DNA of 4,474 nucleotides from a virus (Duplodnaviria; Heunggongvirae; Uroviricota; Caudoviricetes): IMG/VR virus record IMGVR_UViG_2740892268_000007, one strand, 5' to 3'. The position numbers and the translations under genes were made by a program. The notes beneath the pieces are model-generated. The model was not told the origin of the DNA. It did no database searches and saw only the letters and a program-made list of their open reading frames with translations. Shown here piece after piece: positions 1-4,474 of the stretch; positions within the stretch are counted from its first letter, which is position 1, and the number at the start of each line of letters is the position of its first letter.

Positions 1-39
1 CCCGGCAGCCTTCAGGGAAAAATATCATCAGATGGCTGC

Positions 40-393
40 TTAAAAAAAGAACAAATGGTAGTGTCCGCTATTGCCAGTACACCTCAATTGCTCTGCGGCT
101 TCGCTCAGAGCTGGCGTATGTTCCCGGCCTACTGATTCACACAGGTAATCAACGAAACCGGACACCAGTTTTCGTTCGCGAGGCGTGATCGCCCCACCGA
201 CCGGAGTCCAGTAATCGAAACCCAGTTGCAGGAGTTTGAAAAAACGCTTGTGGAATGCGTAGTTACACACACGCTTAAAGTCTGCGTGTATCCACTCACC
301 TATTTTGATTTGATGCAGAAAATCGCAACTCTCCGGCGTCGCCGGGAGAAGTAATCCGGAAGAGGTTTGTTTGACCAGTTGTATATGTGCCAT
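40..393 (-). CDS. Hypothetical small phage protein (117 aa from ATG; track ORF 40..435 uses an upstream TTG)
   Basis: Open frame on the minus strand ending at TAA 39-37. ATG at 393-391 is preceded by GGAG with a 7-nt spacer (minus strand ccGGAGaaagccgATG), which I prefer over the TTG at 435-433 that overlaps the upstream stop. Four Cys residues; no family recognised. Last gene of the operon within the window. Confidence 0.6.
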   Translation of the reverse strand: MAHIQLVKQTSSGLLLPATPESCDFLHQIKIGEWIHADFKRVCNYAFHKRFFKLLQLGFDYWTPVGGAITPRERKLVSGFVDYLCESVGREHTPALSEAAEQLRCTGNSGHYHLFFF

Positions 394-3000: not shown

Positions 3001-3792
3001 CTACTTAACAACCCTCGAATGGCTAACATTCGGACGCCAGCTCTCCCAGTTAAAATTCACCCAGCGCCCGCCGTTCATGACCATGCGATCCATCACCCGC
3101 TCGCCGAGCAATGTTTTCATCACCTCATAGTTCAGGTTTGTCAGCATCCCCACGCTGCGCATCGACGCTGTCCGGCGATCAACAATCTGGTGCAGCACCA
3201 CCTGCTCGTTTTTCGTCTCGCGCTGAATGCCAATTTCATCAAGAACCAGCAGATCCACTTCGCACAGCTCCCGCAAAAATTTTTCGCCTGACTGCCCGTC
3301 GTCATAGCTGGCGTGCAGGGCGCTCATAACATCAGCCACGGTAACCACAATCACTGTCTGACCGTCTTTCAGCAGGCGATTCCCGATAGCTGCCGCTAAG
3401 TGATTCTTCCCGGTACCAGGTTTTCCGCTGAACGCAAAATTTGTACACCCGGTCATCAGTTCATCGGCGATGGATTTCGCCTGGCTTAACGCGTATCGCT
3501 GGCCGTCGTTCTGNNNNNNNNNNNNNNNNNNNNNNNNNNNNNNNNNNNNNNNNNNNNNNNNNNNNNNNNNNNNNNNNNNNNNNNNNNNNNNNNNNNNNNN
3601 NNNNNNNNNNNNNNNNNNNNNNNNNNNNNNNNNNNNNNNNNNNNNNNNNNNNNNNNNNNNNNNNNNNNNNNNNNNNNNNNNNNNNNNNNNNNNNNNNNNN
3701 NNNNNNNNNNNNNNNNNNNNNNNNNNNNNNNNNNNNNNNNNNNNNNNNNNNNNNNNNNNNNNNNNNNNNNNNNNNNNNNNNNNNNNNNNNNN
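3001..3792 (-). CDS. DnaC/IstB-like AAA+ helicase loader (phage replication protein, YdaV/P-like); true start hidden in N block 3514-3792
   Basis: Visible part has Walker A (FSGKPGTGKNHLAAA), Walker B (DLLVLDEIG) and a C-terminal region typical of DnaC-like prophage proteins; stop TAG 3003-3001. A DnaC-like protein of roughly 245 aa would start inside the mask. The track ORF 3001..3972 (TTG) fuses it to the upstream initiator C-terminal domain through the Ns. Confidence 0.8.
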   Translation of the reverse strand, partial: XXXXXXXXXXXXXXXXXXXXXXXXXXXXXXXXXXXXXXXXXXXXXXXXXXXXXXXXXXXXXXXXXXXXXXXXXXXXXXXXXXXXXXXXXXXXXQNDGQRYALSQAKSIADELMTGCTNFAFSGKPGTGKNHLAAAIGNRLLKDGQTVIVVTVADVMSALHASYDDGQSGEKFLRELCEVDLLVLDEIGIQRETKNEQVVLHQIVDRRTASMRSVGMLTNLNYEVMKTLLGERVMDRMVMNGGRWVNFNWESWRPNVSHSRVVK

Positions 3793-4141
3793 CGCGAACA
3801 GGCCCTGGTATTCATTGGCGATGCTGTGTCGAATCACCTGCTCAGGTGTAAAACCCTGCTGACGGAATTTTTCCAGTTCCCGTATCGCCCCGTTAGCGCC
3901 CTGCTCCGTTCGAATCGGTTTTCGCAATGCCTGTCTGAACCGGACCCACTCATGCCAGAGTGTTTCCGGCAACCAATCGGGCAGCTCAATAGCCTCCGGC
4001 TCGAATTTTTTAGACGCTCGTTTTTGGCGAGGGGGAGATCAGTATTTAGATCTTCCTCTTCCTCTTCCTCTGGTAACGCTTTTTGATCCGTTTGTGTAAC
4101 GCTGGCAGCGTTACCTTTTCGTTTCAGTTCGCGTATTTTTG
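3793..4141 (-). pseudogene. Frameshifted middle and C-terminal portion of the phage replication-initiator gene (acidic linker plus helicase-loader-interaction domain)
   Basis: After the 4142..4405 ORF stops, coding continues without any start codon in the -1 frame (KKRAVTNERVTKIRELKRKGNAASVTQTDQKALPEEEEEEDLNTDLPLAK...), then again in the next -1 frame (KKFEPEAIELPDWLPETLWHEWVRFRQALRKPIRTEQGANGAIRELEKFRQQGFTPEQVIRHSIANEYQGLFA) into the N block. Frame changes coincide with T8 (4167-4174) and T6 (4006-4011) or T5 (4021-4025). This is either a true pseudogene or a homopolymer miscall. Confidence 0.5.
4051..4070. repeat. (TCTTCC)3 hexanucleotide tandem repeat, encoding EEEEEE on the minus strand
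   Basis: Plus strand tcttcc tcttcc tcttcc tc at 4051-4070; minus-strand codons gag gaa gag gaa gag gaa within the initiator linker. Confidence 0.7.
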
Positions 4142-4405
4142 TTACTCGCTCGTTTGTAACCGCCCGTTTTTTTTAGAGCTTTTTCCGTTATGACGTTCAA
4201 AGTTAGGTAGAGAAAGCCCTCCGTCATTTTCGACCAGCCATCCAACCTGAATTAACGCATCAGCAAAACCAGACATAAAAGTGATGCGATCTATTGCACT
4301 TTTTGTAACGCCGCGAGCGTTACAATCTGCATTACCGTCTATCATTTGTTGATCCGCCCATGCCCAGAAGCGAATAACCTGAGGTAGCCTGAGTTTAACG
4401 GACAC
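4142..4405 (-). CDS. N-terminal fragment of the phage replication initiator (replisome-organizer / YdaU-like DNA-binding domain), likely 5'-truncated
   Basis: 87-aa ORF (GTG 4405-4403, stop TAA 4144-4142) ending ...LSLPNFERHNGKSSKK, which resembles the lambda-O-type ...PQNEGKSPKK boundary between DNA-binding domain and linker. The first 9 codons (4380-4405) are encoded by what looks like an IS terminus, so the real N-terminus is probably missing. Confidence 0.5.
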   Translation of the reverse strand: MSVKLRLPQVIRFWAWADQQMIDGNADCNARGVTKSAIDRITFMSGFADALIQVGWLVENDGGLSLPNFERHNGKSSKKNGRLQTSE

Positions 4406-4474
4406 TCCTTCCTGAAATAGAATGGCATCAGAAGGAGCTAATAATGAGCAGAAAAACCCAACGTTACTCTAAAG
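4380..4474 (+). mobile_element. Probable IS3-family insertion sequence, left terminus and start of orfA (continues beyond window)
   Basis: Begins with 5'-TGAGGTAGCC (IS3-family elements characteristically begin 5'-TG). About 64 bp later there is AAGGAG, a 6-nt spacer and ATG (4444-4446) opening a plus-strand ORF MSRKTQRYSK..., which matches the N-terminal pattern of IS3-family OrfA proteins (basic stretch, then R-Y/F-S, usually followed by EFK). The orientation is divergent from, and abutting, the phage operon. Confidence 0.45.
4444..4474 (+). CDS. Partial CDS (first 10 codons): putative IS3-family transposase OrfA N-terminus
   Basis: ATG at 4444 with a near-ideal SD (AAGGAG, 6-nt spacer); reads MSRKTQRYSK and runs off the window. 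Identity inferred from 10 residues plus context only. Confidence 0.4.
   Translation, partial: MSRKTQRYSK

Follow-up and report, generated by a model that had tools for sequence, protein, structure and literature searches.

The minus strand of the window (the whole stretch of DNA analysed here, 4,474 nucleotides) encodes a replication module from a lambdoid prophage of the Rac-like type. We conclude with high confidence that the broken reading frames next to the right end of the window are an initiator pseudogene of such a prophage in Shigella sonnei, and that three mutations, all real and independent of one another, have inactivated it. These are a change of length in a poly(A) run, a 10-bp deletion between short direct repeats, and an insertion of IS600. 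What the comparisons described below show directly is where the lesions are, how they recur across assemblies, and what the intact ancestral gene looks like. The initial annotation, made from the sequence alone, had proposed that one initiator gene was spread over three frames by two one-base deficits in homopolymer runs, resulting either from assembly errors or from the decay of a cryptic prophage. The existence of a single gene was borne out, as its pieces align in order to one intact protein of 262 aa, and so was the common direction of the two shifts. Decay, with the IS as part of it, also holds: the mutations are real and occur in hundreds of assemblies.

The initiator gene and its neighbourhood

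The remnant of the initiator gene extends on the minus strand from position 4379 down to 3793, where it enters a run of N. Its first segment (4145-4379) corresponds to approximately codons 37-106 of the intact protein, i.e., the rest of the N-terminal domain, and finishes with an out-of-frame tail, NGRLQTSE, up to the TAA at 4144-4142. This had been correctly identified as the end of an 87-aa minus-strand ORF, except that the stop is 8 codons after the A-run, not 11. The second segment (4037-4166, minus strand), placed in the second frame by alignment to the intact protein, encodes the inter-domain linker, first basic and then acidic (KKRAVTNERV...EEEEEEDLNTDLP). The third (3793-4029, minus strand) encodes the C-terminal domain in the third frame (PRQKRASKKFEPEAIELPDWLPETLWHEW...) until it enters the N run. 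Translation reproduced the earlier readings of both frames, the former as a linker ending in EEEEEEDLNTDLPLAK and devoid of a start codon of its own, the latter as KKFEPEAIELPDWLPETLWHEW.... As judged by sequence comparison, the three segments (3793-4379) are pieces of one predicted phage initiator gene of the YdaU/O type. We also considered that they might be separate downstream genes. This was rejected: all three are collinear with a single protein, and the middle one lacks a start codon. None of the intact homologues in over 80 loci stops at the end of the 87-aa ORF.

The run of 279 N (3514-3792) hides the last ~31 codons and the stop of the initiator gene, as well as the start of the gene of a DnaC-like loader. 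Every relative has 330 bases at this place, and for this reason reading frames cannot be followed across it. The 3' end of the initiator gene under the run would be that of the relatives, which are identical in the visible parts. A second run (980-1234) has 255 N where every relative has 291 bases. Given these differences, the N runs do not preserve length and represent scaffold gaps or masking. Under this second run are most of a hok toxin gene and its immediate upstream sequence. A listed 323-aa ORF (3001-3972) is an artefact that joins the C-terminus of the initiator to the loader.

The 3' part of the loader gene, of the ydaV type and encoding a DnaC/IstB-like helicase loader, is at 3001-3513 (minus strand), in agreement with the RefSeq annotation of two E. 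coli loci (L001 and L002). The 248-aa loader product of a full-length relative (L005) has a Pfam match to IstB_IS21/Bac_DnaA. The visible part shows no indel relative to L001, and this partner of the initiator appears to be intact in the relatives. The same strand further encodes a DUF977 protein (2986-2564), a 137-aa zinc-ribbon-like ORF (2563-2150), QueH (2002-1316), and a 95-aa ORF (719-432). It also carries a DUF1367 gene (40-435) that is cut by an IS600 copy on the left, leaving profile positions 1-102 of 198.

The intact form and family of the initiator

We searched 5,426 complete genomes of E. coli by megablast with positions 3793-4474 as the query and found 667 genomes with at least 80% query coverage. 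The best 30 of these 667 matches all end at window position 4380, and most of them have 596 bases where the window has 588. The intact orthologues in L001 and L002 consist of one ORF of 789 nt (262 aa), located between ydaT and ydaV, with 97-98% DNA identity to the window. One of them is labelled 'phage replication initiator YdaU family protein' in RefSeq. Isolated phages have orthologues that are 96% identical, also as single ORFs, which go under the names ydaU or 'DNA replication protein O'. In the PHROG collection, the intact protein covers all of profile 2509, 'replication initiation protein' (positions 1-277/277, E=1e-89), and it also matches PHROG 678, 'replication initiation O-like'. 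The pieces in the window are recognised separately: segment 1 matches PHROG 2509 at profile positions 36-103 (E=3e-36), and segment 3 is recognised with E=6e-9, its matches including PHROG 6451, 678 and 18589. In the gene tables of L001, L002 and L005, which show a lambdoid immunity-replication module, the initiator is directly 5' of the gene for the DnaC/IstB-like loader.

The C-terminal 124 aa of the protein are 81% identical to YdaU of the K-12-type Rac prophage, and BLASTP revealed no similarity between its N-terminal half and K-12-type YdaU. The search of Pfam with the 262-aa orthologue gave no family at E<=0.01, including the DUF1376 (PF07120) of K-12 YdaU. NCBIfam gave no family for the intact protein, with a single weak match to a DnaT C-terminal model (E=0.006) that is far below the cut-off. 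Since the N-terminal half is unrelated, the initiator is a mosaic relative that has only the C-terminal domain in common with K-12 YdaU. There is a weak resemblance between its last 19 residues (244-262; gene at 3898-4683 of L001) and the C-terminal end of the primosomal protein DnaT (NF002770), and this tail of the initiator is conserved in the K-12-type YdaU too.

The first lesion: a poly(A) run of variable length

The first frame junction is a poly(A) tract of 8 on the minus strand (4167-4174), whose identification as the first frameshift site is supported by the alignment. The positions given earlier for this run (T8 on the plus strand) and for the two candidate sites of the second shift, T6 at 4006-4011 and T5 at 4021-4025 (A5 on the gene strand), are correct in the sequence. 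The DNA alignment and the BLAST comparison both show that the intact gene has A6, i.e., two bases fewer. This is the majority state, found in at least 64 of the 84 related loci, in which the run is crossed in one frame. When E. coli was checked with a 110-nt query, none of the 162 matching genomes reached 99% identity over the A-run stretch, and all 25 of the matches listed had two bases fewer than the window. A9 is the state of the closest alleles from Shigella, which are at the same locus. A 261-aa protein of S. dysenteriae (WP_119163372.1) has KKK in an otherwise intact sequence, where A9 is known from the protein only, and KKK is also present in a partial protein of S. sonnei. A scan of metagenome contigs for the A9 allele gave no matches.

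Hence, the proposed one-base deficit at this run is correct relative to the rarer A9 and incorrect relative to the common A6, from which the window differs by an excess of two bases. We think that the one-base loss (A9 to A8) is probably the more parsimonious origin of the allele. A single-base slip is the smallest step, and alleles with A9 and the very same 10-bp deletion exist at this locus (L083 and L052). These observations, the KKK of the intact S. dysenteriae protein and of the partial S. sonnei protein, and the failure to find any A8 allele without the 10-bp deletion all count against a direct expansion of A6 by two bases, in which case the first lesion would be an excess. This second route is the less likely one, even if it starts from the state of most related loci and of all the listed E. 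coli genomes, and even if the nearest intact allele, L001, is only 1 substitution away. Alleles with A7 (L026 and L080), which have a +1 frameshift and a 123-aa ORF, are carried by 84 contigs under the name of S. sonnei or S. flexneri. Because lengths of 6, 7, 8 and 9 were all observed, the poly(A) tract is a recurrent frameshift hotspot.

The second lesion: a 10-bp deletion

The second shift had been placed at the T6 run or at the A5 run, yet both have the lengths found in intact genes. The true second frameshift is a 10-bp deletion with its junction at 4030-4036 (minus strand). The intact gene reads GATC-TCCCCCT-AAA-TCCCCCT-CGCC, the undeleted state of the repeat being TCCCCCTAAATCCCCCT, and the window has the deleted form: one copy of the 7-bp direct repeat TCCCCCT remains, and the DNA alignment shows that the other copy and the AAA spacer (TCCCCCTAAA) are gone. 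The junction was found in none of the 532 matching E. coli genomes, and its search in the contigs of species-representative genomes gave no matches. The deletion is common to every A8 and A9 allele found.

The frame arithmetic of the initial annotation worked because +2 and -10 each have the effect of a one-base loss on the frame; their sum, -8, is not divisible by 3. The addition of one T to each run, which had been suggested as a repair, does make the frame open again, but the protein is not the ancestral one, since it reads ...DLPLAKNERLKKFEPE instead of ...DLPLNPPRQKRASKKFEPE. Two -1 shifts deduced by frame arithmetic alone cannot reveal the type of indel.

The third lesion: an insertion of IS600

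The homology to the gene ends at 4380, where the left end of an IS600 element (IS3 family) begins on the plus strand (4380-4474); the insertion is after codon 36. This sequence, with the terminal repeat TGAGGTAGCCTGAG... at 4380-4405 and the start codon (ATG) of orfA at 4444, is identical to annotated IS600 copies of E. coli that have unrelated flanks. The element has the ends TG...CA and is annotated in E. coli as 'IS3-like element IS600 family transposase, programmed frameshift'. It is flanked by a target-site duplication of 3 bp (GGT on the gene strand), one copy of which is at 4377-4379 (minus strand), the second being outside the window. In the full-length relative L005, a complete IS600 (~8764-10026) has the first 36 initiator codons on its far side. 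The sequence of this locus is ...GGGAAGGT-IS600-GGTTATTCGC, compared with GGGAAGGTTATTCGC in intact genes, and GGT is present at both junctions, whereas the empty-site alleles (L040, L083 and L087) have a single GGT.

The 87-aa ORF had been taken as the start of the gene. However, its start codon, GTG (4405-4403, minus strand), is inside the terminal repeat of IS600 and, given that gene homology stops at 4380, it opens with nine IS600 codons. The ORF is chimeric, part IS600 end sequence and part gene remnant, and the first 36 codons of the gene are on the other side of the IS and do not form part of the window. A stretch of 1.26 kb of IS600, whose transposase gene is directed away from the remnant, separates them from the rest of the initiator gene.

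The other extremity of the window (1-86, plus strand) is the right end of a second IS600 in the same orientation, as revealed by comparison with the right end of IS600 in L005. Since this copy truncates the DUF1367 gene, the window is a segment of prophage between two IS600 copies. In L005, three IS600 in the same orientation (about 7092, 8764-10026 and 14407-15672) punctuate the prophage remnant. Approximately 400 index blocks have the 87-aa ORF on contigs of at most 2-5 kb, the size expected from short-read assemblies that break at these IS600 copies. In one locus (L010, 7176-10264; GCA_001248565.1), what comes before the IS600 next to the 87-aa remnant is not the usual N-terminal fragment but a Rac module of the K-12 type (recET, kilR, sieB, ydaT, a DUF1376 ydaU and a 241-aa ydaV), and the downstream genes differ too. 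This arrangement looks like the result of IS600-mediated recombination between two Rac-like prophages.

Real mutations versus assembly artefacts

The exact 87-aa ORF is present on 492 contigs that are named S. sonnei by their sources (e.g., 'putative bacteriophage protein [Shigella sonnei]', FORC11_0721); for the 41-aa N-terminal fragment, the count is 344 contigs. In each of the eight genomic loci that we fetched, including chromosomes of 4.8 Mb, A8 and the 10-bp deletion occur together. When the window was compared with L001, an intact prophage of E. coli, the 3,759 aligned nt contained only 5 substitutions and these 2 indels. Taken with the E. coli searches above, these data show that the lesions are real and specific to a lineage of Shigella.

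These data bear on the alternative, also raised by the initial annotation, that the cell has an intact gene and the assembly has frameshifts only through under-called homopolymers. The first site is indeed a long homopolymer, the N runs point to a possible draft scaffold, and some relatives assembled from long reads (L007-L012) have split ORFs elsewhere. We nevertheless regard such an artefact as exceedingly improbable. The second lesion is a 10-bp deletion and not a change in a homopolymer, the identical ORF on 492 contigs comes from many projects with 4.8-Mb chromosomes among them, and the IS600 has a clean 3-bp target duplication. The bias that under-calling was expected to leave at other homopolymers is not seen either: none of the other five runs of at least 6 differs from L001 over 3.76 kb. 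As for the split ORFs, they affect IS and modA/modB genes in several of the 4.8-Mb assemblies (L007-L012), and in L009 (10728-11475) ydaV is split into 69+182 aa and the interval has 331 bases instead of 330. This suggests long-read indel errors in these assemblies. Despite these split ORFs, none of the assemblies differs in the length of the A-run (A8) or in the 10-bp deletion.

Allele series and probable order of events

A pattern scan allowing for A6 to A10 identified 76 further loci, and the alleles can be arranged by the three lesions. At least 56 loci have A6 and the undeleted repeat, with IS600 absent or not assessable, and 8 other A6 loci have a repeat that does not fit the simple pattern. 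Two loci have A7 with the undeleted repeat and no IS600. The deleted repeat is associated with A9 and no IS600 in two loci (L052 and L083), with A8 and no IS600 in another two (L040 and L087), and with A8 and IS600 in 14. In L040 and L087, the ORF is 113 aa long; it corresponds to SS53G_2911 of S. sonnei 53G, and 159 contigs carry it. The two flanks of the IS in L005 are matched at 99.3-99.9% identity by L040, L083 and L087, and two of these (L083 and L087) extend to the neighbouring IS600 copies. Judging from these flanks, they are empty-site alleles of the same locus, and they suggest that A9 with the deletion came first, then A8 with the deletion, and finally IS600.

We infer both an order of events and a loss of function. 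Strand slippage would have first expanded A6 to A9, with the in-frame gain of one Lys codon. A 10-bp deletion where the linker meets the C-terminal domain would have come next, by slipped mispairing between the 7-bp repeats (TCCCCCT-AAA-TCCCCCT), and the loss of one base (A9 to A8) would then have shifted the frame at the A-run. The latest event would probably be the simple transposition of IS600 to a site after the 36th codon, with duplication of 3 bp of the target. All three lesions belong to ordinary types of mutation. As read from the sequence, no functional initiator could be made from this locus. The decay is recent, because the rest of the module is 99.9% identical to intact prophages, and this agrees with the continuing spread of IS600 and build-up of pseudogenes in S. 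sonnei (PMC7373316).

Indels among 83 related loci are found only at short repeats, namely the A-run, (GAGGAA)n, the TCCCCCT repeat, an 11-bp site, and one T4 run. The copy of S. flexneri (L013 6811-7443, SFBU1023; also L014, L053, L059 and L063) has A6 and the undeleted repeat, and carries an 11-bp deletion further downstream, in the C-terminal domain, resulting in a 210-aa product (AAN42505). It is an independent and convergent inactivation in another species of Shigella. The (GAGGAA)n tract (4051-4071, minus strand) encodes poly-Glu, with 6 Glu codons in the window. Its length varies among near-identical alleles (2, 4, 6, 8, 10, 12, 14 or 16 Glu codons), including among chromosomes of S. 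sonnei.

Palindromes, slippage and recoding

The coding region of the initiator contains two 19-bp palindromes, GTAACGC-N5-GCGTTAC, with perfect arms, at 4096-4114 and 4305-4323 (209 bp apart), where 0.00 are expected by chance. We searched for further degenerate copies of this 19-bp palindrome and found none. In lambda, ori is inside the O gene and has palindromic iterons. By analogy, the palindromes could be candidate binding sites of the initiator, with the origin inside the gene. The role of origin is putative, and the arrangement differs from the lambda ori in that there are only two palindromes, 209 bp apart. The slip-prone tracts of the linker are next to or between these two palindromes. 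One may speculate that the poly(A) run (6-9) and (GAGGAA)n (2-16) together act as a contingency-type switch of the replication competence of the prophage, an idea to which we give very little credence. If true, the Shigella alleles would be snapshots of a replication switch before its permanent loss.

Runs of 8-9 A/T can cause slippage of the RNA polymerase, and the run varies from A6 to A9 among alleles, which leaves room for programmed recoding, i.e., for A8 as a slippage site from which a full-length or alternative initiator is still made. We find this reading wholly implausible. Intact homologues with A6 are read straight through, so the shift is not conserved, and the phage orthologues are single ORFs. 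Moreover, slippage could not repair the 10-bp deletion that accompanies A8 in every allele found, and IS600 has removed the first 36 codons and the upstream region, with its transposase gene pointing away. The earlier suggestion that transcriptional slippage at the A8 run could rescue a fraction of the transcripts is therefore moot. The reading that we retain is that of a gene inactivated by real mutations.

Significance and comparison with known systems

This is a case of routine reductive decay, already known in kind. It shows that the 87-aa and 41-aa 'bacteriophage protein' entries of S. sonnei are fragments of one dead initiator gene. The locus is a worked example of the stepwise decay of a prophage in which intermediate alleles are still present in the population, and the presence or absence of IS600, together with the length of the hexamer repeat, could serve as minor lineage markers.

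The gene mxiE of Shigella flexneri depends on transcriptional slippage at an A/T run, and there the shift is conserved and required. The pseudogene is similar in having a long A-run at a frame junction, in the same genus. It differs in that homologues of the initiator are intact without the shift and in that two further lesions destroy the gene. The intact form resembles lambda O, as a two-domain initiator with a flexible linker and an adjacent gene for the helicase loader; at the level of sequence, no homology of lambda O to this family of initiators has been demonstrated. The closest parallel in gene order is YdaU of Rac, encoded in the ydaUVW operon, whose function was described as undetermined (PMC11014345). 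Both genes come after cI/cro-like and ydaT genes and directly before a DnaC-like ydaV, and their products have the C-terminal domain in common, whereas the N-terminal domain is unrelated and the copy in the window is a triple-hit pseudogene. Finally, IS600 is one of five IS whose expansion extends to every species of Shigella (Hawkey et al. 2020, PMC7373316). The most recent IS activity is in S. sonnei, where IS600 expansion and the accumulation of pseudogenes are ongoing (PMC7373316). The pseudogene described here is of the same kind as the IS-driven and slippage-driven pseudogenes of Shigella reported in that study, to which it adds a nested series of alleles.
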